From the NCBI GenBank assembly GCA_043719295.1, contig JAYSUD010000001.1, positions 189,799 to 253,798 on the forward strand: DNA of 64,000 nt. The letters run 5' to 3'. Both the position numbers and the translations under genes were made by a program. Shown one piece after another: positions 2,956 through 63,856 of the stretch. Below the pieces are notes generated by a model. That model was not told where the DNA came from, did not search any database, and saw nothing but the letters and a program-made list of their open reading frames with translations. Source of the stretch: a bacterium (GTDB taxonomy: Bacteria > Patescibacteriota > Minisyncoccia > Phycocordibacterales > UBA918). The first letter of the stretch is position 1. Each line of letters begins with the position of its first letter.

Positions 2956-3087
2956 GTCTATATAACAAATATTGCTCATTTTTAAAAAAGATGTACGATT
3001 AAGTACAAATAGTTGTTCAAAGTTGTAGGAGATAGTTACAAACTTATTTTAATACCTATGAACAGAATGCCCGAATGGAGCGACTAC

Positions 3088-9000: not shown

Positions 9001-10902
9001 AACCCAACAGGAGTTCAAGATTCTACACCAGATTTTTCTGCAATCTTCAGAGATAGCGATGTCGGTAATGTGGCTTCAGCATACCAATTACAAGTAAGTG
9101 CATCATCAACAAACTGGAATACTCTTGTATGGGATTCACTCCAAACAACCCTTAACCCAACAGTAGCTATTGGTGCCCGAAGTCAAGAAATCGCGTACGG
9201 AGGAGGAGCTTTAGTTCCAAGCACTAATTACTACTGGCGAATTAAATTCTTTGACAACCTCAATACCGCAGGGTCATGGAGTACCACAACCGCAAGCTTC
9301 TCACTTGCAAACTTTATTGGCATTAAACATCTTATCTATAATTACGACGTACTTGGTAACATCACCTCTATTAGCGATGTTACAAATCCACTAAGTGCAA
9401 CCGCTAACGTGTATACCTACGACGACCTCAATCGATTACTAACGTATGCGACAGCACCGGTAACAGTTACTCAAACAGCAGATCCACTCTTACCAACAAT
9501 TGCACTTGGATCAAACACCAATCAAGAAGCATACACATACAACTCCCTTGGCAACCTCCTAACCAAAACAGGACAAGGAAGTTACATATACGCTGGTAAC
9601 ACAGCCTCTTTGTACGCAAATCCTCACGCGCCAACAAGTATAAACAGCGTGTCACACACCTACGACCAAAACGGTAACCTCACCAACAAAGGTACCAACA
9701 CCTACTCATGGCACTATACCAACCGTATGGCAGGCTCTGTTGAAGGTGTAAACACCCTCACATACACATACAACACCCAAGGCCAACGTATCTCAAAGAC
9801 AAAGGGAAGTACAGTAACTCGGTATCCTTTCGTGAATTACGAAGTACGAGGAAGTACCACAACCAAACAAGTGTTCTTAGGGGATACACTGGTAACTACA
9901 ATAGAAAACAACGGCAGCTCCTCCAAAGCCTACCAAGTCCACCCTGACCATCTTGGAAGTACACTCTTTACCACCACAGAACAAGGGAAGGTGGCACAAC
10001 TTTTGTCATACAAACCGTATGGAGAAGAGACTATGGGGACGAGTTCTAATAGAGTACAGAGGCACTATATTGGACAGACCAGTGACAGTGAGACAAGTCT
10101 TGATTACTTGAATGCGAGGTACTATGATCCGAGGAAGGGGGAGTTTATTTCACAGGATCCGGTGTTTTTAAGTAATTCACAGAATCTTGCAAATCCGCAG
10201 TCATTAAACAGTTATAGTTATGCTGAAGGGAATCCTATTAATCGGAAGGATCCAAGTGGGTTGGCTACTTGGCAAGGATCTAAAAAGGCAATCTTAAAAA
10301 GTACAGTAAAGATTCTCCAGAGTTATGAGTCACTTCTTCGAAGTGCAAAAGCCGATCCGGTACGTACAGCTAAAGCTGTGGGAAAGTCTGCGGGGAGTTC
10401 GGCTGTAAATGTACTATTTAATTCTGGTGGAATGACTTATGATGCAGCAGCAGCAACAAGAGACAGCATAAAGAAATTCGGAAACGGTTCTGATGCGGTT
10501 CAAGATCAAATGATTGGGAATGGAGCTGTATTTGTGGTAGGTTTCTTTCTTCCGGGAAAGAATTTAAAGAGGATCCCAGATGATGCCTTAGTGGTTAGAG
10601 GAGGTGGTCCTTCCAACTTCGCCCCAGACAAGTTCAGGATTGCAGAGCATAAAAACGCTCCTGGAGTAGTCGGATTCTCAGTGCAATGTGCTTCAGGAAT
10701 GTGTGCAAATGACCTTGCAAGTAATCTACCAAATCAACAGGTTGCACAAACAACTGTTGCACAAATTAGGGCAGCGGGTGGAGACGTTGTTGCTACACCT
10801 GGCCACGGCCAACATTCAACCGTCACAGGGTTAGATGGGCAAGCAGCAAGTCAAGTGCAGTGGGGATTCTTTACAAACCCTAATCCTTGGGATGGCTCAT
10901 GA
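3088..10902 (+). CDS. secreted giant polymorphic toxin: signal peptide, SpvB/TcB N-domain, FG-GAP/VCBS-like DxNGDG repeats, an FN3-like insert, RHS/YD repeats, an RHS repeat-associated core, a DPSGL cleavage motif and an unclassified C-terminal toxin domain (alternative start at 3013)
   Basis: SpvB-like PSLTLSYNSNF...GYGWSISIP motif. Six DINGDGLIDI-type repeats. Many YxYDxxGRL RHS repeats. YQVHPDHLGS...YKPYGEE...ARYYDPRKGEFISQDPV core. PINRKDPSGL followed by a 212-aa tail. Confidence 0.85.
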   Translation: MTFLILKKSASCMLALFVLLSPVLVSAVESETTVSTEETYSVVESETDSAAVTQSKATKETPPAEAPQPVSQSSSATSETQAGTSYLYDPGARSDFPKVNTQDGSMQFSYDVKVPQGRGITTPSLTLSYNSNFTAQNSAFGYGWSISIPSIKRMNKQGTTYLYSKNFFESSFDGELVRVSTSTYLPKVDTGSYRKYNFSNNVWTITEKDGTKYIFGSTTQSRHNNPASSTQIYAWNLEEVRDTNSNYASYTYFKDQGQIYPNTITYSGNNVTPGVFSVVFNRQARGDDIVSYETGFIATTSFRINQIETQQSSSWLQRYDLGYTTGANSNRSLLSSVTQSGRDESGVVSSLPSTNFSYETQTTGDKQWTTDASWTIPENFITGYANLDEGVRDFDINGDGLIDIIKYKNAKISPTYAATPSQTIWLNTGTSWATTSTWTLPQPMATTTPFAFVGYEPSLGISSVDLGARFADVNGDGFTDILWGYKTDTTGMPYPYNHNFGKVYLNNKTNGFTESANYALPTDIRFVVQNKDGGVQIADITGDGLPDLLKSSKIVANGSTTISKKVYVNNGVTWVTASTSWSIPELILDQGEDAGTRVIDINGDGLADILRNTASDYNQGTLQVNKTYLNTGYGWKAVSDTWDSPVPFVYLFQTHGVQSLSPRFVDINGDGLIDIYSNQSGSIYSNTSTHINTGEGWSDQSSTWTEPQLLKFTYANNGTWGAETGVRLMDLDGDNMIDFVKSGPNNTYPTDSHEKKVMIHNATVPDLLKTVEYPEGGLLQVSYKQSPLYKNSLNKNRNPLLPRVLNTVFTLTYDDKVTTPYTDTYSYDGGSYFFGSSTNRYFAGFGTTTVVDSIGNITKSYAHQGNTSQSQLGEFQDSEVKIGKQYSIEKFDVNKNLYARTISQWESYNRGSGATYVYKTKDLTQQYDGDTDHKDTVVIYNVGAAAGNLITLIELGEVTSTTTTGAFVDTGTDRKDTTYQYAQNAGLTIIGLPSKETVTNQSAVKVRETNYYYDNQVLGTATLGNVTKKEDWVVGSTYVNTRSTYNSYGLPTKLMNTKGATTSLKYDTLNLYPTVISNPLLQSATSSFDYTNGREKTLLTPNNVLFETKFDGLDRVIQTKKPDPTTGVSTIASELSYGTTRNAFNVFSTSNVTPSVAVLEYQYLDGFGRKIQNRKEAETAGQYAVSDYTYGKNGRLIKASLPYFSNGTNKTSPTSQINLYTSYKYDPLERVSAVVTTIGTTSTAYDQWRQTETNAKGKQKVYVYDAYNNLVAVEEKEGVNTYTTSYLYDLNKNLTKVTDSLGNIRNATYDGLSRRLTLQDLHATADTTFGSWTSSYDTEGNITSITDPKAQVINRTYDTLNRQLTENYTGTAGTELTYAYDTCTKGIGFLCTAKNTDATTTYKYNPAGGVYVQNETVGSTKYTATTTYTLRGDVSTSTYPDRAQVVYRFDGAGNITAIGEKELTGALHDIVTNIDYGPHGQIIYRENGNGVYTNYVYDANALYRLKAQKTTAVAGTGGSGVDQQALEAELIFTLPQSTTTLSDYTGSFATSSTEATSSAVATDFETVETSATSSQSTKAINQEIKSATTTTQIKKDVATTTQNSKVDVPESERIKDVQGAKIASSLLGKNFLERAELKAQAMSLVKIGTSTPIVDSKFGITLEIQAIEKIENGVQVFIRAWKNGKQLGFGPDGSIEIERIRIINPPILVRRNGQLVEDLKVALEESVLHTVASIGQENTSILAGSIGNTTTTVYPASGAISPVDGRCSEDRYPSWTQVRDSLNCRISSVVEANGNLYNTLGTGSGASNYAITRNYTFFDTSAIPDMDAIYSATYSLFGNGPGDTSLAGTVQRVHVVTSNSINSSNIYTSDFPSVGSVSLGESDNSWDTANYNDFPLNATGMSAVSKVGITKFAIRGHYDLMDIVPDNANEFSVGFYFADQAGTTNDPKLIVQHTANAIPLPPILLRTEGVANPTGVQDSTPDFSAIFRDSDVGNVASAYQLQVSASSTNWNTLVWDSLQTTLNPTVAIGARSQEIAYGGGALVPSTNYYWRIKFFDNLNTAGSWSTTTASFSLANFIGIKHLIYNYDVLGNITSISDVTNPLSATANVYTYDDLNRLLTYATAPVTVTQTADPLLPTIALGSNTNQEAYTYNSLGNLLTKTGQGSYIYAGNTASLYANPHAPTSINSVSHTYDQNGNLTNKGTNTYSWHYTNRMAGSVEGVNTLTYTYNTQGQRISKTKGSTVTRYPFVNYEVRGSTTTKQVFLGDTLVTTIENNGSSSKAYQVHPDHLGSTLFTTTEQGKVAQLLSYKPYGEETMGTSSNRVQRHYIGQTSDSETSLDYLNARYYDPRKGEFISQDPVFLSNSQNLANPQSLNSYSYAEGNPINRKDPSGLATWQGSKKAILKSTVKILQSYESLLRSAKADPVRTAKAVGKSAGSSAVNVLFNSGGMTYDAAAATRDSIKKFGNGSDAVQDQMIGNGAVFVVGFFLPGKNLKRIPDDALVVRGGGPSNFAPDKFRIAEHKNAPGVVGFSVQCASGMCANDLASNLPNQQVAQTTVAQIRAAGGDVVATPGHGQHSTVTGLDGQAASQVQWGFFTNPNPWDGS

Positions 10903-11282: not shown

Positions 11283-11411
11283 ACAAAGTGTCGATAGAAT
11301 AGACGCAGCAATAGCTGATAGTTATATGACACCAGCAGGAGACAGTCGCGCAATGGGGCATAAAAGGGGATAAGTCCAATAAAAACTCAAATATCATGGT
11401 CTAATAAATTA

Positions 11412-12083
11412 ATGCCTCGCATGAACAGAGTTGCCGTAGGTAACACTGTGTATCACGTACTTAATCGTGCAAATGGTCGTGCTCAAATCTTTCACACTGA
11501 TGCAGAATACCAACACTTCGAATCACTCCTTTTAGAAGGTGTGGAGCTTATCGGTATGAGAATACTCGCATACTGCATCATGCCAAATCACTGGCATCTT
11601 GTACTCTATCCACATAAGGATGGAAATATGAGTGAGTTTATGCGGTGGGTTACTACCACACATGTTCGACAACGACGGACACAAACAAAAAGTGTCGGTG
11701 CAGGTCATTTGTATCAAGGTACATACAAATCGTTTCCAATTGAAACCGATCACCATTTACTCACCGTGATACGCTATGTTGAACAAAATCCATTACGAGC
11801 AAAGCTTGTGACTCAAGCAGAACAATGGCAATGGTCATCTTTATATAGAAGGGAGAGAAATAATGACGAAGATAAAAAGTTTCTGTCAGTACTTCCAACA
11901 GAATTACCAGAGAATTATCTTGAATCAGTTAATACTATTCTTTCTGAATCAGTTCTAACCAGCGTTCGTCATTCTCTCACCAAGGGTACTCCGTATGGTG
12001 GAGATATTTGGACAAGGGAGATGATTGATAAGTATAATTTAGGGAGTACCATACGAGGTCCAGGGAGACCAAGATTAGATTAA
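11412..12083 (+). CDS. IS200/IS605-family HUH tyrosine transposase-like protein (RAYT-like, COG1943) with a C-terminal extension
   Basis: HUH motif CIMPNHWHLVLYP and a catalytic-Tyr region HLYQGTYKS. No TnpB partner. A single gene flanked by repeat-rich DNA. Confidence 0.75.
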   Translation: MPRMNRVAVGNTVYHVLNRANGRAQIFHTDAEYQHFESLLLEGVELIGMRILAYCIMPNHWHLVLYPHKDGNMSEFMRWVTTTHVRQRRTQTKSVGAGHLYQGTYKSFPIETDHHLLTVIRYVEQNPLRAKLVTQAEQWQWSSLYRRERNNDEDKKFLSVLPTELPENYLESVNTILSESVLTSVRHSLTKGTPYGGDIWTREMIDKYNLGSTIRGPGRPRLD

Positions 12084-12208
12084 TATTACAACATGAATAT
12101 TGCAGAAATAACGGACGTATCCCTGTTACCTCAAAAATAGAAATCTACCCTCCTCTGTTTTAGTTGCAACTATAGATTGTTGTAGTGCTATACTTATTTC
12201 AATAATTT

Positions 12209-13327
12209 ATGATCAAGATTGTTCTAGTTGGAGGGGGGAGTGGAGGGCATTTTTATCCGCTTATTGCGGTAGCTGAGCAAGTGGCAGCGTATAAAAAAAG
12301 AGGACTTGATGTAGAGATGTACTACATGGGTACAGAGGCCTATAACCAGGCTGACCTTGATGCCAATGGGATTTCTTTTATCTACTGTCCATCGGGAAAG
12401 AGACGAAAGTATTTTTCACTCTTAAACTATTTTGATATTTTTAAAGTTATCTATGGTTTTTTTGTAGCGGTTTATAAACTGTACATTCTCTATCCTGATG
12501 TTGTCTTTAGTAAGGGAAGTTATACGAGCGTTCCGGTAACGCTTGCTGCATGGGTGTTACGTATTCCGGTTGTTGTACACGAATCAGACACACGTCCCGG
12601 AAGTGCAAACAAACTTGAGTCACGGTTTGCACGATACGTTGCAATTTCTTTTGAAGAAGTAGCACAGTACTTTCCTCAAGACAAAATTGGACTTACTGGA
12701 ATCCCACTTCGTAAAGCGTTTGTAGAAAAAATTGATAATCCTGTTATGGAGCTTGGGCTACCTTCTGACAAACCACTCATCTTTGTTACCGGTGGTTCTT
12801 TTGGTGCACAGCGACTTAATAACCTCATTTTAGAATCGCTTAACGAACTGTTGCCTTCATACGTCATACTCCATCAAACAGGGGAGACCAATGCAAAAGA
12901 AGTGCAGAGTTATGCGTCAACTATTATTAATGATACACAACTCCTTGCGCACTACTTTGTAAAAGGTTCTTTAACAGCGAGAGAAATGAACCTTGCTTCA
13001 AGTGTTGCGTCACTTATCATCTCAAGAGCGGGAACGGGAAGTATCTATGAAATAGCTCAAAAAGGGAAGCCGGCAATTTTGATCCCAATACCCGAAGCAA
13101 TTAGCCACGATCAAAAGACAAACGCATATGCGTATGCACGAACGGGAGGTGCGTCGGTCCTTGAGGAGGGGAATTTAACTGACGGTTTGCTTGCTTCTGA
13201 AATTAGCCGTATTATGGAAAACCAAGAGGTATACGATTCTATGCAGAAAAATGCACTCGCATTTGGACATACTGACGCGAGCCTAAAGATTGCTGATACC
13301 CTAATTGGGATCGCTCAAGAACACTAG
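12209..13327 (+). CDS. murG: undecaprenyldiphospho-muramoylpentapeptide beta-N-acetylglucosaminyltransferase
   Basis: GGGSGGHFYP N-terminal motif and GT28 family architecture. dcw context. Confidence 0.9.
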   Translation: MIKIVLVGGGSGGHFYPLIAVAEQVAAYKKRGLDVEMYYMGTEAYNQADLDANGISFIYCPSGKRRKYFSLLNYFDIFKVIYGFFVAVYKLYILYPDVVFSKGSYTSVPVTLAAWVLRIPVVVHESDTRPGSANKLESRFARYVAISFEEVAQYFPQDKIGLTGIPLRKAFVEKIDNPVMELGLPSDKPLIFVTGGSFGAQRLNNLILESLNELLPSYVILHQTGETNAKEVQSYASTIINDTQLLAHYFVKGSLTAREMNLASSVASLIISRAGTGSIYEIAQKGKPAILIPIPEAISHDQKTNAYAYARTGGASVLEEGNLTDGLLASEISRIMENQEVYDSMQKNALAFGHTDASLKIADTLIGIAQEH

Positions 13328-13330
13328 TCG

Positions 13331-13460
13331 GACCTGCATAAATGGCACATTTCTTCGTTATACTGCATAAAATAACACTCATCGTACCCAACGTACGCCT
13401 CGCATTATTTCACTTGTATGCCTCGAACTGCACTCGTTACTGTAGGTCCTTGGAAGTTAA
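13331..13460 (-). repeat. interspersed repeat family 2 copy (reverse orientation)
   Basis: Its reverse complement reads acgagtgcagttcgaggcatacaag...aataatgcgaggcgtacgtt...aacgaagaaatgtgccatttatgcagg, nearly identical to the copy at 55561. Confidence 0.6.
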
Positions 13461-22934: not shown

Positions 22935-23074
22935 GCGTAGCGATTATTGCGAATTTACCTTCTTACAGAAGCTGTCCGCTCATTGGATACTTTATTTCGT
23001 TACACTCATAAAGTCTCTCAATGAGTCTTGCGAAAGTGTCCCACACTTTCTCACCCAGTTTTCGCGCTGATCCA

Positions 23075-23150
23075 GAGTTCGTTTCAATGCCTCAGCGTTA
23101 GCTGTGCATTGAATAGAACTCAGCGGAAACTGCTGGAACTTTCCAACGTT
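23075..23150 (+). repeat. REP-like hairpin family 1 copy (stem gagttcgtttcaatgc/gcattgaatagaactc, loop ctcagcgttagctgt, tail gctggaactttccaacgtt)
   Basis: Same loop and 3' tail as 2671-2955, with a different, self-complementary stem sequence. Confidence 0.6.
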
Positions 23151-23187
23151 TAGGTAAATCGATCTGTTGTAAAAGCACTCAACATAG

Positions 23188-32088: not shown

Positions 32089-32140
32089 CAAAGGCACAAA
32101 AAAATCGCTTCCTTAGAAGCGATTTTTTTGTGCCTTTGTT
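32089..32140. terminator. bidirectional rho-independent terminator
   Basis: aaaggcacaaaaaaatcgcttc-ctta-gaagcgatttttttgtgccttt. Confidence 0.6.
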
Positions 32141-32280
32141 TTTAAATAGACATCTTTCAAAAGTGAGTGTAGGTGTGTTGGTTGGAAAGATTTTAACGAT
32201 AGAGCCGTATATTGGTATACGGTGACAGAGGCAAAATCTTGAAACCAATACAGATAGACCACTTTTGAAAGAAGTCTAAA

Positions 32281-33000
32281 TTACTCAGTTACTTCTCTCT
32301 GGATAGTAACCGATTCAATTACTACTGGTTCTGTTGGCAAATCGTTTGGTCCTGTCTGAACAGATTCAATTGCATCGACGATATCGAGTCCTTTAACAAC
32401 ATGACCAAACACTGGGTGCTTAGAGTCATTTGGATCTGGAACGTTAAAGTCTAATCTGCTGTTATCTCCTACGTTGATAAAGAATTGACTTCCTCCTGAG
32501 TTTGGCTGCCCTGTGTTCGCCATTGCAATTGAGCCACGAACGTTTGAAAGATTATCCGCTGCTACGAACTCATCTTGAATAGTGTATCCAGGTCCTCCTT
32601 GCCCATAACTTGATGTGTTTTCAGTTTTTGAGTTTGGATCTCCACCTTGGATCATAAATCCATCAATTACGCGGTGAAACTTTGTTCCGTTATAAAATCC
32701 TGATTCTGCGAGCTTTACAAAGTTACCAACAGTAATAGGCATCTGATCTTCAAAAAGTTCTAGTTCGAATGTTCCCTCACTTGTTTTAAATATTGCTTTT
32801 GGGTTCATGGTGTTTTTTGTTACTTGATTATCTGCTTTAAGTGCTTCAGGAGAAAGTGGAGCATCAAGCTCTTGTGTTTCATCTAAAAGCGGAAGCTCTG
32901 TTGATGTCGACTTACCACCAATCCACAACGACAATCCAACAACCAACACTGCACACACAAGGAATAGTAAGGTGACACTTTTGATATTAGTAGGATTCAT
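32281..33000 (-). CDS. cyclophilin-type peptidyl-prolyl cis-trans isomerase with an N-terminal signal/anchor
   Basis: FHRVIDGFMIQGGD and GSIAMAN motifs. Confidence 0.85.
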   Translation of the reverse strand: MNPTNIKSVTLLFLVCAVLVVGLSLWIGGKSTSTELPLLDETQELDAPLSPEALKADNQVTKNTMNPKAIFKTSEGTFELELFEDQMPITVGNFVKLAESGFYNGTKFHRVIDGFMIQGGDPNSKTENTSSYGQGGPGYTIQDEFVAADNLSNVRGSIAMANTGQPNSGGSQFFINVGDNSRLDFNVPDPNDSKHPVFGHVVKGLDIVDAIESVQTGPNDLPTEPVVIESVTIQREVTE

Positions 33001-37210: not shown

Positions 37211-37228
37211 ACCCACGTACAAGGCTTT

Positions 37229-37345
37229 CAGAAATGGATGCAAATTCGAGGCGTGCAAATAAAATGAACCGAGGCGTACGTATAGTACGACGAGGGTCAT
37301 TTTATGTAGCACAACGAAGAAGTTGCGCCATTTATGGAAGCCCTA
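37229..37345 (+). repeat. interspersed repeat family 2 copy (partial) that overlaps and supplies the stop codon of the 37343-38530 gene
   Basis: caaattcgaggcgtgcaaat...gaaccgaggcgtacgta...aacgaagaagttgcgccatttatggaagccctagttga. The same 3' block, gccatttata...gccctagttga, recurs at 51015-51050. Confidence 0.5.
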
Positions 37346-38530
37346 GTTGAAGGTGATAATATCTTCGATGTCATCCTCATCCTCATCCAACTCCTCTGCG
37401 ATAGCTTCGATAATCTCATCCTCATCGTCTGATGAAACTTTGATTCGTTTTGTTGTTCCATCTTCAAATTCAACTGTTGCAAGAGCTTGACCATCCTCAA
37501 TGTCAACTTTGATTTCTTCCATCTCTTGATACTCAAACTCGATGATGTCCTCAACTTCATCTTCATCAATATTAAGTTCATCTGCTACTTCTTCAATGAT
37601 TTCTGCCTCCTTGTCTTCTTCAATGGTAAATTCTTCATCGTCACCATTTTCATATTCTACTTCTACAGTAGCTTCCCCGTCTTCAATTGAAGCGACAATC
37701 GATTCAATTTGATCACTTTCATCATCCTCGTCTTCTTCTTCTTCATCCTCGTCTTCGTCTTCGTCTTCATCACTATTAGATGAAATAAATTCTATATGTG
37801 AAAGAATAGTTGCTTTAGATTGTCCAAGTGAAACAGCTACAGCATCGATAATTTTGAGTTTTGAGTCTCCAGCAACATCCAGAGTCTTTTTTGTACCGTC
37901 GGTGTAAATGATTTTTACATCAGCCTTACTTCCTGTATACGCCGCAGTAATTATTTTAAATCCAGAAGTATTTGGCGCTGTTACGGTAGGTGTTGTAACT
38001 GGCGTTGGATTTACCACTACTGGTGCTATTGGTACAACTGCACCCACAACAGGTTTCTTCTTAAGTACATCAACAGGATAGATATCGTTTGGATATGCTG
38101 CAAAGAATTCATTCAAGAGTGCCTTTGTTGCAGGACCTACAGCTCCGACCGGTTTAAGTCCAAATCGAGTTTGCAAATTCTTGATTGCCTCTTCAGTTTT
38201 CGGTCCAAATAACCCAGAAGATACTCCGTATGGATAGATTTCTTTGTCAGTTGCAAGTAGTTTTTGAATCTTCTTAATATCACTATTAGTTTCACCAAGA
38301 ACTATGTTTTGCGTTAAAACACTTTTTATCGAAGCCCCAAGTACTGTGGGTTGCGGTGCACCCCCTTGTACACTTGCAAGTTTTGCAAATTCTTCTCGGA
38401 GTGACTGTATCTCTTTAATAATAGCGTCCATTCGCACAAGAGAAGCTTGAACATCTGCAGCATGAGTTGATGGAGTTATTGCCACAACTAAAGCTACAGA
38501 GAAAATAAATAATGATAAGTAGTAACGCAT
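37343..38530 (-). CDS. secreted, highly acidic protein with a PG_binding_1-like domain and two repeated acidic modules
   Basis: Signal peptide, IKKIQKLLA...GLFGPKTEEAIKNLQTRFGL peptidoglycan-binding motif, DE-rich tracts, and the repeats TVEVEYENG...EEVADELNIDEDEVEDIIEF and TVEFEDG...IEAIAEELDEDEDDIEDIITF. Confidence 0.6.
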   Translation of the reverse strand: MRYYLSLFIFSVALVVAITPSTHAADVQASLVRMDAIIKEIQSLREEFAKLASVQGGAPQPTVLGASIKSVLTQNIVLGETNSDIKKIQKLLATDKEIYPYGVSSGLFGPKTEEAIKNLQTRFGLKPVGAVGPATKALLNEFFAAYPNDIYPVDVLKKKPVVGAVVPIAPVVVNPTPVTTPTVTAPNTSGFKIITAAYTGSKADVKIIYTDGTKKTLDVAGDSKLKIIDAVAVSLGQSKATILSHIEFISSNSDEDEDEDEDEEEEDEDDESDQIESIVASIEDGEATVEVEYENGDDEEFTIEEDKEAEIIEEVADELNIDEDEVEDIIEFEYQEMEEIKVDIEDGQALATVEFEDGTTKRIKVSSDDEDEIIEAIAEELDEDEDDIEDIITFN

Positions 38531-38675: not shown

Positions 38676-39788
38676 TTACGCAGCGTCTTCTGCATCTTCC
38701 AATTCATCTGCAGCATCTTTTGCCTTGTCTTCTGCTTCATCAGCTAAGTCCTCTGCTTCACTCCAGTCTTCGTCATCAAATGCATCTTCTGCATCTTCTA
38801 ACAGTTCTTTTGCGTCATCAAGCTTGTCTTGTGCGTCGTCTACATCTACATCATTGTTTGCATCATCGATATCTTCTTGTACAGCGTCAATTTCATCTTC
38901 TGCATCAGAAATTGCATCTTCTGCATCATCTTCTTCATTTGCGTCTTCGTCTTCATCAAGAGCATCGCCAAGTTCTTCTTTGATATCATCAACAAGTGCG
39001 TCTTCTACATCGTCTAGATCCATATCAAGTTCATCAGCTACCTCTTCAAGGACAGCAGATTGTGAAGTTGAACTGACAGTAACAGTGTAGTCGTCGTTGT
39101 CATAGTTGAAAGAAACAGTAGTTTTACCATTTTCGATTTCAACTTCTACTTCATACTCATCATCTTCATCTTCATCTTCGTCCTCGTCATCTTCATCTTC
39201 GTCCTCATCATCTTCATCTTCGTCCTCATCCTCATCTTCGTCTTTATCTTTGTCTTTCTTGTGATCTTTACAGAACAGTCCCCACGCACCTACTTTTTCC
39301 TGTTCACATAAATTTTTCTGAACTTTTTTTGCGATACCAGGTGCACGGAGTAATCCCTCGGGATATGTCTCACCAAATCTTGCCTTAAGATATTCTTCAA
39401 GCAGTTTTTTAGTATCACCGCTTACTTCACCAGTTGGAGCAAGTCCATTCTTCTTTTGGAAACGTTTTACCGCTTCCTTAGTAAGGGGTCCATAGTATCC
39501 AGTAATTTTTCCTTCTGGATAAATAGTTTGATCAGAAGCGAGTATTTCTTGAATTTTCTTGATGTCCGCATCACTCATTCCTTCTCTAAGACCATCTTTA
39601 AGTGTCTCACGTACTTCACCTTTAATCTTTGCAAGTTCAGCTCGGAGAACCTCAACTTGAGCCATTAATGACTTAAGCGTCTCTAAAAGAGACGATACAT
39701 TTGTTGTCGTGGTCGCTGCTTGTGCTTGTGGCGCCTGTACCATAACGCATAACGCGATGGCAAATACTATTCCTGCTAATTTTTTCAT
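38676..39788 (-). CDS. secreted, highly acidic protein with a PG_binding_1-like domain (paralog of 37343-38530)
   Basis: Signal peptide, coiled coil, IKKIQEILA...GYYGPLTKEAVKRFQKKNGL, a (DE)n run of about 45 residues, and the module TVSFNYDNDDYTVTV...LEEVADELDMDLDDVED. Confidence 0.6.
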   Translation of the reverse strand: MKKLAGIVFAIALCVMVQAPQAQAATTTTNVSSLLETLKSLMAQVEVLRAELAKIKGEVRETLKDGLREGMSDADIKKIQEILASDQTIYPEGKITGYYGPLTKEAVKRFQKKNGLAPTGEVSGDTKKLLEEYLKARFGETYPEGLLRAPGIAKKVQKNLCEQEKVGAWGLFCKDHKKDKDKDEDEDEDEDEDDEDEDEDDEDEDEDEDDEYEVEVEIENGKTTVSFNYDNDDYTVTVSSTSQSAVLEEVADELDMDLDDVEDALVDDIKEELGDALDEDEDANEEDDAEDAISDAEDEIDAVQEDIDDANNDVDVDDAQDKLDDAKELLEDAEDAFDDEDWSEAEDLADEAEDKAKDAADELEDAEDAA

Positions 39789-44961: not shown

Positions 44962-45033
44962 GGTCTCATCGTCTAACGGTTAGGACGCAGGATTCTCATT
45001 CCTGCAATCGGGGTTCGATTCCCCGTGAGATCA
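44962..45033 (+). tRNA. tRNA-Glu (anticodon CUC)
   Basis: Manual cloverleaf: 7-bp acceptor stem ggtctca/tgagatc with one G-U pair, D-stem gtct/ggac, anticodon stem cagga/tcctg, loop ttCTCat, T-arm cgggg-ttcgatt-ccccg. No encoded CCA. Confidence 0.8.
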
Positions 45034-45068: not shown

Positions 45069-45189
45069 TGTTCGTGATCTCACGAGTAACAGTGTGGGAC
45101 ACTGTTACGTGGGAATCGAAAAGCGGCTTGAGATACTTTATGAACGAAGTGAAATAAAGTATCCAAACGCTGCACAGATTCTGTAAGAA

Positions 45190-50757: not shown

Positions 50758-50842
50758 TTATAGCTATCTCCAATAATAAACATATAGCAAATACCCACCA
50801 GAACATCTTTGGTGGTTATTTGTTTTTTACATTACTCATTAA

Positions 50843-50937
50843 GGGCTGCAGAAATGAGTGTAATTCGAGACGCGAAGTAAAAAATATGCGAGCCCTACTT
50901 GCTGTAGGGTGAACAGATTTTTTATGCACGCAACGTT
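50843..50937 (+). repeat. divergent copy of interspersed repeat family 2
   Basis: gggctgcagaaatgagtgtaattcgagacgcgaag...atgcgag... plus local hairpins. A further 3'-end fragment at 51010-51050 abuts the multicopper oxidase (MCO) stop codon. Confidence 0.45.
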
Positions 50938-51043
50938 AAACTATGACTAAACGTCATTGTTTAAAAGGTTGTCGATATTTTGAAGAAATATCATACAGCC
51001 TGAACAGTTCCTGTATGGAAGAAGTACGCCATTTATACAGGCC

Positions 51044-52861
51044 CTAGTTGACGGTGAAGTTAAACATCATCCCGGCCCCCATATGCTCTGCAATATGGCA
51101 GTGTGACATCCACGTCCCTTTATTACTCATGTCAATAAGAATATCAACAGTCTGACCCATTGGAATTAAGACCGTATCTTTCCACTGCAAGTTTTCGTTT
51201 GCAACACCATCACGACCTAAGACAACAAACCGCTGTCCATGGAAGTGCAGTGGGTGTTGCATTGGGTGGAGTCCTTTACCGTCATTAAACACACGTATCT
51301 TAACCATGTCACCTTGTGTAAATGACCAATTGATTGCACTGTTTTTTAGTCCTGTTGTTTCATCTTCAATGACCCATTCTACAGTTTCATTTGAACTCAT
51401 TTGATTAACTTCAGCCATGCCGTCTTCCCACTCAATGCCGTCTTGGTGGGTGTGCATCATTGCCATAGGCATACCTGCAGTTAGATATGTTGAACAACCA
51501 TCTGTATTTGGTACAAGCTGACAATACTGTGTCGCTTGCGACTCTGTCATTTCTTTCCCTCCGAGTATCACTGTTTTATTTTGCGCTGTTTGTAGCAAAG
51601 GTCCGCATTCTGCCATTGATGGCATGACCGCACAGTGCTCTATCCCTTGTTGTTTTGTCATTTTAACTCCCATAACCATCACGTTTCCATCACTATCAAC
51701 TTGACCTACAGAAGTATCACTTGAGCTTATGCTCTTTAGTTCAATATCAAGGCGGATTTTTTTATCAGGTTCTTTTTTGAGGAGTGCTCCAATGTTGGTT
51801 CGGATATTTTCATAGTCAGAGGTGTTTGAACGCATTTGTAGAAATTTTTGCTCTTCAACCGCACTACTTGGTTTTACAATCACCTCACCAATTTTCAAAC
51901 CACGATTTAAGATTGGATAGGTACCTGCTTCTTTGTAGAGCAGTTCAAGCACATAGCGTTCAGATGGACCAAATACCGTTTTTTCAATTTGAACTTCTTT
52001 TTCAATTCGTCCGTTATCGCCTCCAACTTCTTTAACTAGCGCTCCAGAAAAAGCAATCTCAAGCGTACGCGTGTTTGCAACGTTAGTGAGAAAGAAACGG
52101 GATACTTCCCCTTGGTTGACGGTCAGTTGTAAATTTTCTTTGTCGTTAATGAGAATTTGATCACCATACCGACCCATGAGTGTATGAGTAATAATCGTGG
52201 GATCAAAATCCCCTTTTTCAAGAAGGTCATCAAAAATAAGATACTCTTCGTGCGCAACGGTATTCCAATACCCATCTTCAGTAACTATCATGTTGCCATA
52301 AAGCCCTAGTTCCTGCTGGTAGTCTTCACGAATGTGCGGGTGATACCAGAAAACACCTGTATCAGGAAACTCAAGCTCATAGGTAAATGTACCTCCAATT
52401 GGTATTGGACTTTGAGAAACTGGTACAGCTCCATCGAATTTCCAATTACCTCGAAGTCCATGTGAATGAAGTGCAGTTTCCATATCGATACTATTCTTAA
52501 AGTTCACGGTTATTTTTGAACCTTTCTCAACTTTAAGTATAGGTCCTGGAATCTGTCCATTATATGCAAGGCGTTTTATCGTTCTATTACCTACTTCTTG
52601 CACCACAATAGTCGCCTCAAGATCAAAGGTGTCACCATCTTTAAGCTCCACAATTTGTGTTGGTTTAACGCTATCTCTGTTTTCATCAACCAACGTCAAT
52701 CCCCCTTTAAAGTTCTCAGGTGTCAGTATTTGTTCAACTTCCATTTGCTTAGTAATTCGATCACCGTACAACGTATAGAGTAGAACCCCAACAATAACAA
52801 GGCAGAGTGAGACAATAATAGTTATGAGAAGCCTGAATTGTGATGGTAAAATTTTAATCAT
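51044..52861 (-). CDS. multicopper oxidase (laccase/CueO-like) with an N-terminal membrane anchor
   Basis: Copper-ligand motifs HSHGL, WYHPH, HPLHFHG and HCHIAEHMGAGMM. Confidence 0.85.
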   Translation of the reverse strand: MIKILPSQFRLLITIIVSLCLVIVGVLLYTLYGDRITKQMEVEQILTPENFKGGLTLVDENRDSVKPTQIVELKDGDTFDLEATIVVQEVGNRTIKRLAYNGQIPGPILKVEKGSKITVNFKNSIDMETALHSHGLRGNWKFDGAVPVSQSPIPIGGTFTYELEFPDTGVFWYHPHIREDYQQELGLYGNMIVTEDGYWNTVAHEEYLIFDDLLEKGDFDPTIITHTLMGRYGDQILINDKENLQLTVNQGEVSRFFLTNVANTRTLEIAFSGALVKEVGGDNGRIEKEVQIEKTVFGPSERYVLELLYKEAGTYPILNRGLKIGEVIVKPSSAVEEQKFLQMRSNTSDYENIRTNIGALLKKEPDKKIRLDIELKSISSSDTSVGQVDSDGNVMVMGVKMTKQQGIEHCAVMPSMAECGPLLQTAQNKTVILGGKEMTESQATQYCQLVPNTDGCSTYLTAGMPMAMMHTHQDGIEWEDGMAEVNQMSSNETVEWVIEDETTGLKNSAINWSFTQGDMVKIRVFNDGKGLHPMQHPLHFHGQRFVVLGRDGVANENLQWKDTVLIPMGQTVDILIDMSNKGTWMSHCHIAEHMGAGMMFNFTVN

Positions 52862-54775: not shown

Positions 54776-55552
54776 ATGTATATGCACATCCCTCTCAAGA
54801 AAATTAAAGAACTTACTGAAAAAAAGTACCGAACTGAAACAAAGCTGTTTTTAGTTGAAGGTGAAAAAAATATCTTGGAGCTTTTACGTTCTGATTTTGA
54901 AGTGGTGACACTTTTAGGTACTGTACCCTTTTTGAATATAATTAGAACTGAAATTCTTAGCTATGAAAAAGAACACGGCCCACTTACCTGTATAGAAGCA
55001 ACAGAAAACACATTGGTGCAAACAGGAACCTTACTTTCAAACAACACCGGGATTGCCGTCGTACGCCAAAAAGATGCACCTTCGGTAGAAGCGGTCATTA
55101 CTTCAGCACAAGATACCATTGTGCTTATCCTTGATGATATTCGGGATCCTGGAAACTTAGGCACTATTATTCGAACGGCAGATTGGTACGGAGTGACTCA
55201 TATTGTAGCCTCAAATACTACAACTGACTGCTATAACCCTAAGGTTATTGGAGCTACTATGGGTTCGTTTACACGAATGTCGTTACTGTATACAGACCTA
55301 GATTCACTTTTTGAACTCATAGAACCACTTTCTATTCCTGTACTGGTTTCAGAATTAGCGGGGTTAAATACGCATACAGAAGTGTTACCGCAACATGGCT
55401 TTTTACTTATGGGAAGCGAATCACATGGTGCAAGCAAAGCTTCACGACAACATGCTACGCACACTGTTACTATCCCCCGCTTTGGAAAAGCTGAGTCACT
55501 TAATGTGAGTGTCGCAACAGGAATTCTTCTTGATACAATCCGTCGCTTTTAA
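54776..55552 (+). CDS. TrmH/SpoU family RNA 2'-O-methyltransferase
   Basis: GNLGTIIRTADWYGV, and an SPOUT knot region SLNVSVATGILL. Confidence 0.8.
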   Translation: MYMHIPLKKIKELTEKKYRTETKLFLVEGEKNILELLRSDFEVVTLLGTVPFLNIIRTEILSYEKEHGPLTCIEATENTLVQTGTLLSNNTGIAVVRQKDAPSVEAVITSAQDTIVLILDDIRDPGNLGTIIRTADWYGVTHIVASNTTTDCYNPKVIGATMGSFTRMSLLYTDLDSLFELIEPLSIPVLVSELAGLNTHTEVLPQHGFLLMGSESHGASKASRQHATHTVTIPRFGKAESLNVSVATGILLDTIRRF

Positions 55553-55560
55553 TATGCTCA

Positions 55561-55682
55561 GGACTTGCACAAATGAGTGCAGTTCGAGGCGTACAAGCAA
55601 AATAATGCGAGACGTACATTTTGTACGTAGAGTATTATTTTGAGCAGTACAAGGAAGAAATGTGCCATTTGTGCAAGTGCTG
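55561..55682 (+). repeat. interspersed repeat family 2 copy with a perfect 12-bp terminal inverted repeat (cttgcacaaatg/catttgtgcaag)
   Basis: ggacttgcacaaatgagtgcagttcgaggcgtacaag...aataatgcgagacgtacatt...gaagaaatgtgccatttgtgcaagtgctg. It ends exactly at the ybjQ stop codon. Confidence 0.65.
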
Positions 55683-56000
55683 TTACTCAATTACCACAGC
55701 AGTACCAGACACAGTAACCATAAGCATATTACCGATAGTTTGATAATCAATATCAATACCGATTATGGCATTAGCCCCCAAAGCTGCTGCTTTCGCTTCA
55801 ATTTCTTTAAACGAAGCTTCACGGGCATCAGAAATGGTTTTTTCATAGGTTGTCGATCTTCCGCCAACAATATCTCTGATACTTGCCATAATGTCCTTAA
55901 TCACGTTAGCACCAAAGATTGTCTCACCAGTAACTACTCCTTTATATGACTGAATCTTTTTTCCTTCGATACTGTGTGTGGTGGTGAATTCCATATTCAA
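55683..56000 (-). CDS. YbjQ/UPF0145 family protein
   Basis: 105 aa with the typical YbjQ sequence (SIEGKKI...[12 protein letters not shown]). Confidence 0.8.
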
Positions 56001-60117: not shown

Positions 60118-60167
60118 AGAAGTATTTAATTATGAATTATGTTTATTTGAAATTACATCTGTTTAAC

Positions 60168-60287
60168 GGACTTCCGAAAACGAGTGCAATTCAAGGCAGA
60201 CGAGAAAAATTGTTTGAGGCGTACAAATGTACGTTGAAAATAATTTTTTGAAGTCTAACGAAGAAGTGTGCCGTTTTCGAAAGTTCG
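60168..60287 (+). repeat. interspersed repeat family 2 copy
   Basis: ggacttccgaaaacgagtgcaattcaaggc...tttgaggcgtacaaatgtacgtt...gaagaagtgtgccgttttcgaaagttcg, with a terminal inverted repeat. Abuts the ftsI stop. Confidence 0.65.
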
Positions 60288-60288
60288 T

Positions 60289-62007
60289 CTAGCGGTCTGG
60301 AGGGACATTATAATAATTAATCAAAAACTTGGTCAATTCCATAAAGGGTTCAGTTAGTGTCTCAGACGCATATTTTACCCCCTTTGGCTCAACAGTATAC
60401 AAGAGAATAAGATATTGTGGGTCGTATGCGGGGAAATAGCCGAAAAATGAGTGTAGATACCGATCATCGTAATACCCTCCTCCCGCATTATCAGCAATTT
60501 GTGCAGTACCCGTTTTTGCAGCAATACTATAGTGTTCTTGCTTTTGTTTACCACCGCTTAGTGCCTTATCAACTACTGTGGTGAGCATTCTTGAAACTTC
60601 TTCACTGGTTTCTTTTGTAAAAACTTGATCACCTTCTGGATACACAATATTTTTTGAAGTTCCATCTTGATACTCAATTTTCGTTGCAATATGGGGGGTT
60701 ATAAGACGACCACCATTCCCAAGCGTTGCGAGCGCTCTGACGGTAGCCATTGGAGTTATCGCAATTCCTTGTCCAAATGAAGCTGTTGCGTATTCAACGT
60801 CACGAGGTGAATTGAGGTTATCAATAAGTCCGTACGTTTCGTTTGGTAAATCGACCCCCGTTTCGTTACCAATTTTTAAGGCAGAGAAATATTTTCTAAA
60901 TTTCTCTTTGCCCATAGTCTTTACAATAAACGAAACTCCTGTGTTGAGTGACTGATTGAGTACCTCTTGCATGGTTACGGTACCACGTCCTCTCCCATCG
61001 TAGTTTTTGATGGTATAGGTATCAAGATCAATAAACCCCGCATCGTAATAGGTGGTGCTTTCACTCACAGCCCCACTATCAATACCCGCAGCCATAGTAA
61101 GCGCTTTTATGATTGAACCCATCTCGTACACGTTCTCAACTAATGGATTTCTAAACGCATTGATGTCTGCCCCTGCTCGATCGTTTAAATTAAAAGTAGG
61201 AATCGCATTAAGTGCATAGATCTCACCATTTTGGGGATTAATGATAATGCCTCCAGTAAGCGTACTACTATATTTCTCTTGCACTTTTGCAAGCTCACTA
61301 TCGAGCATTCTTGCAACAGTAGGTTCAATAGAAGTTACGACATCACCTGTTCGTGATTCTGTTGTATCAAAAATAATATTTCCAAGATTCGAAAAAATCT
61401 CAGCAAAAAAGTTAACGGTTGTCCTCCCATCATCACGGGTGAGCACATCATCATAGTACCTCTCTAGCCCATAGCGCCCCGCAAGCCTATCACCTCCATC
61501 TTCAGTGTACCCAACAAACCCTATTGAACGAGATGACAGCTCCTCACCAGGGTAGTACCTCCATTGTGTTCGATACATTTGTACACCCTTAAGACCCAAT
61601 GCTTCAATTTTATCAGAATCATCGTTACTTACCCGAGGTGCAATTTCTTGATAGGTCTTTTCTTTTTTTGCTGCTTTTTCTAAGAAGACAGTTTTATCAA
61701 TAGGATACACACTTGAAAGCTTTGTGTAGGTATCTTCAATATCAACAAGCCTACTTGGGTCAATTGCCAACACGTATCCAGACTGGATAGTTGCTGCAGA
61801 AACTTTTTCACCATCTTTGGTAGTAAAGAAAATACTTCCTCTACTATATAAATCTTTTACCGTATGTACATACTGTCGCGTTGCTTTATCTTCGTACGCT
61901 TGATGCTGCATGATTTGGATTTGATACAAACGCCCAATAAGTACTAACGCCAAAAACAACACCACGCCAGTGATGATGCGTATGCGTAAAATGGCACTTT
62001 TCCTCAT
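60289..62007 (-). CDS. ftsI: penicillin-binding protein 2/FtsI (class B transpeptidase)
   Basis: N-terminal TM, dimerisation domain, SxxK (GSIIK), SxN and KTG motifs. Confidence 0.85.
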   Translation of the reverse strand: MRKSAILRIRIITGVVLFLALVLIGRLYQIQIMQHQAYEDKATRQYVHTVKDLYSRGSIFFTTKDGEKVSAATIQSGYVLAIDPSRLVDIEDTYTKLSSVYPIDKTVFLEKAAKKEKTYQEIAPRVSNDDSDKIEALGLKGVQMYRTQWRYYPGEELSSRSIGFVGYTEDGGDRLAGRYGLERYYDDVLTRDDGRTTVNFFAEIFSNLGNIIFDTTESRTGDVVTSIEPTVARMLDSELAKVQEKYSSTLTGGIIINPQNGEIYALNAIPTFNLNDRAGADINAFRNPLVENVYEMGSIIKALTMAAGIDSGAVSESTTYYDAGFIDLDTYTIKNYDGRGRGTVTMQEVLNQSLNTGVSFIVKTMGKEKFRKYFSALKIGNETGVDLPNETYGLIDNLNSPRDVEYATASFGQGIAITPMATVRALATLGNGGRLITPHIATKIEYQDGTSKNIVYPEGDQVFTKETSEEVSRMLTTVVDKALSGGKQKQEHYSIAAKTGTAQIADNAGGGYYDDRYLHSFFGYFPAYDPQYLILLYTVEPKGVKYASETLTEPFMELTKFLINYYNVPPDR

Positions 62008-62343: not shown

Positions 62344-63243
62344 TTATATTTTTTCTATAATTCGTAATTTTGCGCTCCGTGCTCTCTTATTTAACTGAAG
62401 TTCTCCATCGCTCGGTCCTATTGGCTTTTTATTAACCAGTACTGCTTTACAATCGCGTGTAAATTCTTTGAATGTTTCTTTAACAATTTTGTCTTCAAGA
62501 CTGTGGAAAGAGATCACTGCCATTCGTCCATGTGGTTTTAAAGATTCAAAACCATGTGCAAGCAAATCTCGCAGTGCATCGAATTCATCATTAACTGCAA
62601 TTCGTAACGCCTGAAATGTTTTTGTTGCAGGGTGAATGCGGTGTTTGCCTCCTTTTTTTGGCATTGCCTTTTCTATGACCGTAGCTAACTCTAACGATGT
62701 ACAAATAGGAGTTAATTCACGTTCTTTAACTATCATTCGTGCAATCCTCCGTGAGTACCCTTCATCTCCGTACGCATAGAGCACATTTGCAATGTCTTCC
62801 TCTTTCCAATCGTTGATGATGTCAAAGGCATTGAACGCATAGTTTGAAGGCTGTCCGTAAGTCATCGCAAGCGGTTCTTCACGGTTAAATGAAAATCCTC
62901 GTGGTTCACCTGCTTCCCCATCAAACTGCTCCATGCGCCAACCTAAGTCGGCTAAGATTGCATCAACCTGCCCTATTTCTAGTCGCTCCAACACTTCATT
63001 GATGAACCGAAAGTTATCTTCAACAAGTATGACTTTTGCTTTACTCAGGTCTTTTAGATGTGATGCAGCTTTGATAGCTGTTTTGTCAACATCAATACCA
63101 ATGTAGGTACCCTTAGCTCCCAATTCATTCAAAATTAACTCTGCATGTCCACTGCTTCCAAGCGTACAATCAACAACAACTGAATCCTTATGGAGATTCA
63201 GTGCGTGAACTGCTTCTTGTTGTAGAACAGTAATGTGTGACAT
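62344..63243 (-). CDS. rsmH: 16S rRNA (cytosine1402-N4)-methyltransferase
   Basis: MraW family (VDCTLGSSGHAELIL SAM motif). Start at the internal MSHITVLQQ; the longer ORF runs into the repeat. Confidence 0.85.
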   Translation of the reverse strand: MSHITVLQQEAVHALNLHKDSVVVDCTLGSSGHAELILNELGAKGTYIGIDVDKTAIKAASHLKDLSKAKVILVEDNFRFINEVLERLEIGQVDAILADLGWRMEQFDGEAGEPRGFSFNREEPLAMTYGQPSNYAFNAFDIINDWKEEDIANVLYAYGDEGYSRRIARMIVKERELTPICTSLELATVIEKAMPKKGGKHRIHPATKTFQALRIAVNDEFDALRDLLAHGFESLKPHGRMAVISFHSLEDKIVKETFKEFTRDCKAVLVNKKPIGPSDGELQLNKRARSAKLRIIEKI

Positions 63244-63290
63244 AGCCGGAGGTATTACTGTGGCTTCAAAAAACAAAGTAGTGCTTGAGT

Positions 63291-63412
63291 GAGTTTTCCA
63301 AAATGAGTGCGATTCGAGGCGCACAAGGAAATTTTTTGCGAAATGTACGTTGTAGTACTTTGAGTAAAAATTTCTGCAGCGCAACGACGAAGCGTGCCAT
63401 TTTCGAAAGCTC
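63291..63412 (+). repeat. interspersed repeat family 2 copy in the mraZ-rsmH spacer
   Basis: gagttttccaaaatgagtgcgattcgaggcgcacaag...gcgaaatgtacgtt...acgaagcgtgccattttcgaaagctc. Confidence 0.65.
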
Positions 63413-63421
63413 TGTTGTAGA

Positions 63422-63856
63422 TTAGAGGACGCCGATCTCCCCAAGCTTCTCAGCGAGCTGATCTGCCTGACTTTCAATCTTGCGTTTATACTCTTCCCAT
63501 TTATTCTCACCCCAAATTTCTACACGATTGTAGATGCCTGCAAGTACAACTTTTGTGTCGAGTCCTGCAAATTCTTTTAAAAAATCTGGAACGAGAATAC
63601 GTCCAACACTATCTACCTCAATCTCTACTGCTCCTGACAAAAAGAATCTATTGAAACTTCTTGTATCCGCCTGACCAAGTGGAAGTTGACCGATCTTTTC
63701 AGTGATCTTCTTCCACTCTGCCTGGGGATATACAAAGAGACAGTTATCAAGTCCGCGAGTGACGATAAGCGTTTTCCCAAGATCCTTCCGCCATTTAGAC
63801 GGAACGGACAGCCGTTTCTTAGGGTCCAACGTATGCTTATATTCGCCAATCAACAT
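63422..63856 (-). CDS. mraZ: transcriptional regulator MraZ
   Basis: MLIGEYKHTLDPKKRLSVP duplicated MraZ fold. First gene of the dcw block. Confidence 0.85.
   Translation of the reverse strand: MLIGEYKHTLDPKKRLSVPSKWRKDLGKTLIVTRGLDNCLFVYPQAEWKKITEKIGQLPLGQADTRSFNRFFLSGAVEIEVDSVGRILVPDFLKEFAGLDTKVVLAGIYNRVEIWGENKWEEYKRKIESQADQLAEKLGEIGVL

Follow-up and report, generated by a model that had tools for sequence, protein, structure and literature searches.

The 64-kb window analysed here (positions 189,799 to 253,798 of contig JAYSUD010000001.1, from a bacterium of the Patescibacteriota; all coordinates below are window positions) contains a short repeat with inverted ends, whose focal copy lies at 55559-55682 and which recurs next to housekeeping genes, and this raises the question of what kind of element it is and how it came to lie where genes end. 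A sequence-only reading had described it as a family of at least seven copies behaving like a MITE (a miniature inverted-repeat transposable element) or a REPIN. To count the copies we built a covariance model from those listed in that reading and scanned the window with filters off; the repeat family was recovered, and the number rose to eight copies per 64 kb, or one per 8 kb, including one at 32147-32278 that had been overlooked. From the evidence given below we consider it probable that the repeat is a family of non-autonomous DNA transposons, that is, of MITEs, in Paceibacteria/Parcubacteria, bacteria of the candidate phyla radiation (CPR). The MITE half of the earlier interpretation is thereby borne out by terminal inverted repeats (TIRs), an exact 5-bp target-site duplication, an empty site, presence and absence among relatives, and copies in many contigs.

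When the flanks of all copies were lined up, the commonest terminal form proved to be TA-GGACTTACGCAAAYG ... CRTTTGCGTAAGTCC-TA, with inverted repeats of about 20 nt (TIR consensus TAGGACTTACGCAAAYG / CRTTTGCGTAAGTCCTA; inverted-repeat motif TAGGACTTACGCAAA) and with helix 1 of the covariance-model structure 92% paired. The dinucleotide TA stands directly before GGAC in 38/72 copies and directly after GTCC in 42/72, against a dinucleotide background of 6%. Some copies and subfamilies have CA...TG as their terminal dinucleotides, and since these two are in an inverted relation, the terminal dinucleotide lies inside the element and is not part of the duplication. In a register scan the five bases outside the left TA matched the five outside the right TA, while the TA positions themselves were not in direct repeat. 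Among 71 non-redundant copies the 5-mer flanks matched at all five positions in nine and at four or more in 17; permuted flanks (2000 permutations) averaged 0.31 and 2.4 and never exceeded 3 and 8, respectively. When only the 34 copies with TA at both ends were considered, a length of 5 gave six perfect matches, or 14 matches if up to one mismatch was allowed, and lengths of 3, 4 and 6-8 gave 0-1 perfect matches each. The duplicated target is AT-rich and its pentamers vary (TAGTT, TCTTA, TAATA, TATGA, TACCA, ATATG, AACTA, TTAGA and TCTAA; consensus T-A-W-N-A). We rejected a 2-bp duplication of TA, of the IS630 type, since the flanks that match are external to the TA and exactly 5 bp long and since TA co-varies as CA...TG, and we rejected a 9-bp duplication because only its middle five positions match in the register analysis. 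An exact 5-bp duplication implies staggered cuts, which would be made by a DDE-type transposase supplied in trans. The element itself has no coding capacity, its short candidate open reading frames (ORFs) not being conserved; no stop interrupts the reverse strand of the focal copy, but its ATG is ACG in 26/68 copies through a covarying pair, and stops occur in other copies.

Comparison of orthologous loci, which had been proposed as a check, showed the element to be present in some related genomes and absent from others, and a search for joined flanks revealed one clean empty site. At L028 (loci with such names are contigs fetched from metagenomes or relatives) the sequence runs ...CCTAGGC|TAAAAAG..., with CCTA once, and in the filled orthologues of this site, L046 and L054, CCTA stands on either side of the element. 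Two further empty-site candidates, L006 and L012, turned out to be remnants or solo inverted repeats and were discarded.

The family is spread well beyond the window. An exact-pattern scan of GTDB, with one genome per species, matched only two metagenome-assembled genomes (MAGs), both of Patescibacteria/Paceibacterota, and a degenerate-pattern scan found the family on 57 metagenome contigs, where the covariance model placed 89 non-overlapping copies (77 unique sequences), frequently two or three to a contig. An exact match to the FtsI protein is recorded in a single Logan assembly only. RsmH homologues, and those of a Y1 protein encoded in the window, carry the names Parcubacteria, Pacebacteria and similar. 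Scanning viral contigs with the element pattern gave no match, and a scan of them with the 17-mer inverted repeat gave five unpaired singletons that lacked covariance-model support and were taken as chance. In the window Rfam recognised nothing at gathering thresholds except one tRNA, and at E values of up to 10 it gave only chance matches to microRNA hairpins, at 14-18 bits. The sequence-only reading had allowed that copies might be restricted to the window, or that their likeness might be confined to short low-complexity motifs; the former is contradicted by the 57 metagenome contigs and two MAGs, the latter by similarity that spans the full 130 nt. With copies in that many other contigs and MAGs, the family is not a local duplication. 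A size of about 125 nt and a conserved structure with variable sequence also lend the element a superficial likeness to integron attC sites or VCRs; its ends, however, read TAGGAC...GTCCTA and not RYYYAAC...GTTRRRY as in attC, its neighbours are housekeeping genes (the dcw cluster, gltX, rpmA), the window has no integrase, and duplications flank the copies. We therefore give practically no credence to local segmental duplication, chance low-complexity similarity or attC-like sites, an explanation already refuted by the census, whose contigs are unrelated to one another, and by the anatomy of the ends. Since a literature search found no description of MITEs in CPR/Patescibacteria, the element is a previously undescribed MITE family, a new family of a known type of element.

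Seven of the window copies lie on the + strand, and the sole copy on the minus strand (13325-13459) sits where genes are on the + strand. All of them have housekeeping genes as neighbours, as judged by Pfam:

1407-1539, + strand: copy 1, diverged (covariance model 57 bits, E = 5e-13), in sense orientation between mraY and ftsW (neighbours by Pfam); mraY has the left terminal TAG (1407-1409) of this copy as its stop.
13325-13459, - strand: copy 2 (127 bits; alignment and Pfam), antisense to both its neighbours, murG and gltX; the TAG stop of murG (13325-13327) is made up of the copy's right terminal TA together with a G.
32147-32278, + strand: copy 3, the overlooked one (38.8 bits, E = 5e-8), with inverted repeats TAGACATCTTTCAAAAGTG and CACTTTTGAAAGAAGTCTA, between convergent rpmA and a cyclophilin gene, the stop of the latter (32281-32283) lying 2 nt away from the end of the element.
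37218-37345, + strand: copy 4 (125.7 bits), antisense, flanked by the gene of an acidic peptidoglycan-binding protein (37343-38530) and by a YgjP-like gene; the former takes its TAG stop from the right terminal CTA (37343-37345).
50840-51046, + strand: copy 5, lengthened to 207 nt by about 90 nt of additional stem-loops within its 3' half (partial covariance-model match at 50856-50947; the arms pair in the fold), between a convergent CAP-domain gene and multicopper oxidase gene, the latter with the right terminal CTA (51044-51046) as its TAG stop.
55559-55682, + strand: copy 6, the focal copy (133.5 bits; Pfam neighbours), with CA...TG instead of TA...TA as termini, between a convergent SpoU methylase gene (stop 55550-55552) and ybjQ (TAA stop 55683-55685, directly adjoining).
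60164-60291, + strand: copy 7 (129.2 bits), antisense, within the dcw operon, where it separates ftsI from murE; the TAG stop of ftsI comes from the right terminal CTA (60289-60291).
63289-63414, + strand: copy 8 (124 bits), antisense, between mraZ (stop 63422-63424, 8 nt away) and rsmH (true start near 63243).

Four copies thus lie antisense between co-directional genes (murG/gltX, peptidoglycan-binding/YgjP-like, ftsI/murE and mraZ/rsmH) and three between convergent genes (rpmA/cyclophilin, CAP/oxidase and SpoU/ybjQ). The six copies listed at the outset are indeed related, aligning over their full length with a mean column identity of 67% and sharing the three conserved blocks that had been pointed out, and their termini do vary while staying complementary (17/47 pairs with double changes among five copies). 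A weak relative placed at 1433-1530 is related as well, although its extent was underestimated, for it is the diverged copy 1, whereas the stretch 51010-51050, taken for a separate relative, is in fact the right arm of the copy that had been placed at 50843, split from the rest by the insert of about 90 nt. The typical length of a copy is 125-135 nt, with variants of up to 321 nt. Length variants with the same inverted repeats occur at 9820-10140 of L058, 9156-9388 of L046 and 1262-1475 of L055, besides 50840-51046 in the window; the forms of 207-321 nt have extra stem-loop modules in common, such as GACCAATTTTTGTTAGCC...GGCTTACAAAAATGAAGTAC, and L032 carries at 8342-8414 a 73-nt form with an internal deletion. 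Immediately left of copies 3 and 5 are canonical hairpin-plus-T-run terminators, at 32091-32138 after rpmA and at 50795-50815 after the CAP gene, so that in these two convergent pairs one gene's terminator and the other's stop codon enclose the element.

The dcw regions of four related genomes (RsmH identity 73-76%) were compared with that of the window. At the mraZ/rsmH junction all four (4/4) have 31-54 nt and no element. At the ftsI/murE junction three relatives have a 5-nt spacer and no element (...GAC AGA TAA nnnnn ATG), and the fourth has a spacer of 172 nt (L065, L066) that is unrelated to the element, unstructured (z = +1.15) and not repeated; a covariance-model scan of 53 kb of these relatives gave no match. 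In the window FtsI ends in ...GAC CGC TAG, the TAG being formed at the element boundary where three relatives have TAA, and on the far side of copy 7 stands a relic, TAAACAGATG, that resembles the stop-spacer-ATG junction of the relatives. The segment from copy 7 to the murE ATG (60118-60163) comprises, after this relic, about 41 nt of AT-rich sequence absent from the relatives. A weak promoter-like match, TAAACA-18-CATAAT (9/12), extends across the end of copy 7 and reads towards murE.

How the element comes to end genes follows from its termini: both ends read 5'-TAG inward, and hence copies abut or supply stop codons. In the window the terminal TAG makes the stops of mraY, murG, the peptidoglycan-binding protein, the multicopper oxidase and FtsI; the observation that copies abut the stops of ybjQ and ftsI was correct, and extends to these other genes. 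Over the 71 copies the two ends differ. A long inward ORF stopping at -15 to +7 nt is found at the right end of 29/71 copies, nine of which use the terminal TAG exactly, the remaining stops lying mostly inside the adjacent duplicated pentamer; at the left end only 11/71 copies have such an ORF, and none uses the terminal TAG. Reconstruction of locus L014 indicates that the element landed there exactly between the last sense codon and the TGA, which now stands on its far side. In compact genomes the T/A-rich pentamers that tolerate an insertion would mostly be the neighbourhoods of stop codons, and an ORF struck in its last codons or its stop may be re-closed in one frame by the inward TAG, which would provide a clean mechanism for a transposon to hit a stop codon and yet leave the gene undamaged. 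In copy 1 the right arm (1535-1539) also holds the predicted ftsW ATG (1535), so that this copy apparently supplies both the mraY stop and the ftsW start.

It had further been proposed that insertion rewrote the 3' ends of genes. This holds for stop codons, as in the change of the FtsI stop from TAA to TAG, but not for the sense codons of the oxidase: this protein finishes in ...HCHIAEHMGAGMMFNFTVN, natively the close of the Cu-oxidase_2 domain (profile position 133/137 at residue 604/605), and because ...GMMFNFTVN is native, its last sense codons do not come from the element. Copies 4 and 5 have right flanks (37346-37356 and 51047-51057), GTTGAAGGTGA versus GTTGACGGTGA, that are identical at 11/12 positions and encode ...TFN* and ...TVN* in two unrelated genes, and this extension is found at no other copy.

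Set against known systems, the element has every testable defining feature of a MITE, namely a size within 50-800 bp without a transposase ORF, TIRs of at least 10-15 bp, a duplication within 2-10 bp, and dispersed, polymorphic copies, and it lacks those of TA-duplicating MITEs, REPINs, IS200/IS605 derivatives and attC sites. A close parallel in form is ERIC, the imperfect-palindrome MITEs of about 127 bp of Enterobacteriaceae/Vibrionaceae, which like the element (about 125-130 bp) form an imperfect hairpin over their whole length, are intergenic and often at gene 3' ends within transcription units, and vary in copy number between related genomes. ERIC inserts at TA. The element differs from it in its 5-bp duplication, extensive covariation and strand asymmetry, shares no sequence similarity with it, and inhabits another phylum. 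Effects of ERIC on flanking mRNA have been reported (PMC10969869). Correia/NEMIS of Neisseria, RUP of pneumococcus and Nezha of cyanobacteria are likewise short, TIR-bounded, non-coding and present in high copy, with ends beginning in TA. These families are attributed to transposases of the IS630/Tc1-mariner type. Correia, RUP and Nezha duplicate TA only, whereas in the element the TA lies inward of the duplication, which measures 5 bp, and is replaced by CA...TG in some subfamilies. Correia elements are co-transcribed with neighbouring genes and their hairpins are substrates of RNase III (PMC10969869), and comparable MITE behaviour, including location in 3' untranslated regions (UTRs) and effects involving RNase III or RNase E, is reviewed in the same source (PMC10969869). 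In its abundance in a reduced genome, its position at ORF 3' ends and its contribution to ORF termini the element recalls QMITE2 of Coxiella burnetii and the RPEs of Rickettsia, MITEs of reduced genomes that lie in 3' UTRs or are fused with ORFs (PMC10969869, PMC5896051). It belongs to another sequence family and host, and unlike them it gives only a stop codon (in one copy a start codon) and no in-frame peptide.

The window does contain a transposase gene, at 11412-12083 on the + strand, encoding a Y1_Tnp protein of 223 aa (Pfam 59 bits), and it contains no DDE transposase. The best NCBIfam match of the Y1 protein is the model of REP-associated tyrosine transposases (RAYTs), at 64.7 bits and so under the curated cut-off of 80, and a homologue occurs also in the element-rich locus L017. 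One could thus suppose that the element is REPIN/REP-like or derived from IS200/IS605 (PATE-like) and was moved as folded single-stranded DNA (ssDNA) by this enzyme. REPINs, which are mobilised by RAYTs (PMC3116915), share with the element a hairpin of about 100 nt, co-evolving arms and extragenic position, here with a RAYT-like Y1 gene in the same genome; a structure-constrained, strand-asymmetric hairpin is what ssDNA recognition would lead one to expect; and the 7-8 nt GGACTTA at the element end resembles the complement of TAAGTCC in the repeat flanking the Y1 unit. That repeat, however, is the gene's own: a 12-bp inverted repeat, GGGGATAAGTCC / GGACGTATCCCT, delimits a unit of 11366-12124, and neither a covariance-model match nor any repeated 14-mer was found in the flanks of the Y1 gene in the window. 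Homologues of the Y1 protein, 65-91% identical across Paceibacteria, are non-syntenic, many lie on contigs of about 1 kb, and they have conserved flanks (GGGGATAAGTCC...gene...AATAACGGACGTATCCCC), the 3' motif AATAACGGACGTATCCCC occurring in extra, tandem copies nearby in some genomes; the element does not accompany them in this way, for 62 kb surrounding seven Y1 loci contained a single copy, at a distance of 1.5 kb from the gene. RAYT genes have REP sequences in their immediate non-coding flanks (PMC3116915), which is not the case for the element here, and REP units have a GTAG or CGTC head (PMC3733652), which the element lacks, just as its arms are not individually palindromic. A REPIN joins two such short palindromes of 20-40 nt in inverted orientation and makes no target duplication. 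Variable 5-bp duplications flank the element and argue against a Y1/RAYT mechanism. To our knowledge, Y1 transposition of the IS200/IS605 kind makes no such target-site duplications. A PATE derived from IS200/IS605 would lack both TIRs and a duplication and would have a fixed tetra- or pentanucleotide at its 5' side, whereas here TIRs are present and the duplicated pentamers vary. Mobilisation by the Y1 enzyme is thus very unlikely, the REPIN half of the sequence-only reading is not supported, given the variable duplications, the arms that are not REP palindromes and the different repeat around the RAYT-like gene, and the Y1 gene looks like a separate mobile or domesticated unit.

We then turn to the fold. 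The element forms one long imperfect hairpin, the focal copy reaching -56 kcal/mol (z = -7.1 versus dinucleotide shuffles). In the alignment of 68 distinct sequences 88.4% of cells hold standard pairs, as compared with 73.7% in column shuffles and 31-46% in slid controls, both partners have changed in 42/47 pairs, and covariation scores 0.42 versus 0.17; because the aligned copies are related by descent, these counts of pairs, and of the G-U cells below, are not independent events. Covariation reaches the central helix, beyond the terminal repeats, and the apical stem is conserved, contains GUAC and is flanked by symmetric GA/GA loops. The two strands are not equivalent. The forward strand, as written in the sequence-only reading, folds better as RNA in 76/77 copies (means -47.8 versus -36.7 kcal/mol), sporadic G-U cells outnumber A-C cells by 83 to 31, one pair with an inherited A-C having been set aside, and this strand is purine-rich, with a GC skew of +0.20, yet lies mostly on the C-rich strand of the window. 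A mutation bias of transcription or replication was rejected as the source of the G-U excess, since the forward strand is mostly the C-rich, template strand, for which such a bias would predict the opposite.

These properties raise the alternative that the element is primarily a structured RNA with a function for the host, a hairpin for processing, stability or insulation or else a small RNA, and that its dispersal is secondary. Covariation over the whole hairpin, G-U cells exceeding A-C cells, purine-rich internal loops with conserved tandem GA/GA around the apical stem, a skew opposite to that of the local strand, non-random and orientation-biased siting at gene 3' ends, and persistence of copies inside the essential dcw operon all fit such a function. 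In the commonest arrangement, however, the better-folding strand is transcribed by no flanking gene; in the preferred orientation it is the weaker-folding complement that enters the mRNA of the gene with the abutting stop. The element is not a canonical terminator either, as no U-tract (T-run) follows its hairpin although the organism uses hairpin-plus-T terminators, true examples of which adjoin two copies. It has no Rfam match, close relatives do without it at the same junctions, and its TIRs, duplications and empty sites indicate spread as DNA. One orthologous pair, L021 versus L012, reveals no extra conservation, for the element is 97.7% identical and 130-nt windows of flank are 71-99% identical, so that the comparison is uninformative. 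On balance we hold a primarily host-functional RNA to be unlikely. By analogy with the ERIC and Correia hairpins, an effect on the processing or stability of flanking mRNA is possible.

Several observations weigh against a non-autonomous DNA transposon. The best-conserved blocks, TGCAGTTCGAGGCG in the 5' arm and CAACGAAGAARTGYGCC in the 3' arm, are internal and not mutually inverted, and such internal blocks combined with varying but complementary terminal repeats are unusual if only transposase binding is conserved. Whole-length covariation, the strand bias of G-U and the 29-to-11 asymmetry of the ends are not predicted by a plain selfish MITE. The window's own copies have no recognisable 5-bp duplications, the evidence coming from copies in relatives; we attribute this to the age of the window copies. 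The flanks at ftsI/murE fit a 2-3-bp duplication of TA(A) better than one of 5 bp. The transposase that the window does encode is of the Y1 type, and neither the window, nor about 680 kb of fetched loci, nor viral contigs yielded an autonomous element or a DDE transposase with ends that match. As candidates for an autonomous partner we tried pairs of inverted repeats 0.7-4 kb apart in all loci, which yielded only the 73-nt deletion derivative and host genes.

The hairpin, maintained by compensatory changes and folding better on one strand, leads us to infer that a single-stranded form of the element, either RNA in read-through transcripts or ssDNA, is under selection. We regard it as a tentative and rather doubtful extension that the element is, beyond a selfish MITE, a strand-specific folded nucleic-acid module under purifying selection, which either transposes as a folded single strand or has been co-opted as gene-end punctuation. 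If the former were true, transposition would need a folded single strand, a mechanism not known for elements that duplicate 5 bp; if the latter, a built-in TAG stop joined to a hairpin would process, stabilise or insulate transcripts in tight operons such as dcw. In either case the asymmetric GA-rich internal loops would be a motif recognised by protein or RNA. Compensatory evolution together with strand asymmetry makes the family a testable case for selection on a MITE hairpin at the level of RNA or ssDNA.

The non-autonomous DNA transposon that we favour would also bear on genome biology of the group. CPR/Patescibacteria genomes are about 1 Mb in size and highly streamlined, and their mobile DNA has been little studied; at one copy per 8 kb, including the essential dcw operon, the family would be a major shaper of intergenic space. 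It would cause breaks in MAG assemblies and could serve for strain typing, and the curated alignment and covariance model are directly usable for annotating it.

Other repeats were encountered in the course of the analysis. A different pair of inverted repeats of 62 nt, 79% complementary, lies at 22960-23021 and 45128-45189 and is probably the family 1 of the sequence-only reading; one of its arms is just downstream of the tRNA at 44962-45033. A 45-nt direct repeat has three tandem-like copies at 2742-2966 and a distant one at 23128-23172, and is located upstream of gene 3013-10902, which encodes a toxin-like giant protein of 2629 aa with SpvB, TcdB-middle, FG-GAP and DUF6443 domains. The genes at 37343-38530 and 38676-39788 encode adjacent secreted PG_binding_1 proteins with extremely acidic C-terminal halves made of D/E repeats, which account for direct repeats of the TCATCTTC type in the repeat scan. 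Finally, an unrelated GC-rich palindromic repeat (GGCAGGCAAAGACGGACGATGGGACGGACGCAAATCG...) occurs on the element-bearing contig L026, at 1519-1533 and 4000-4014, and is the same in L037.

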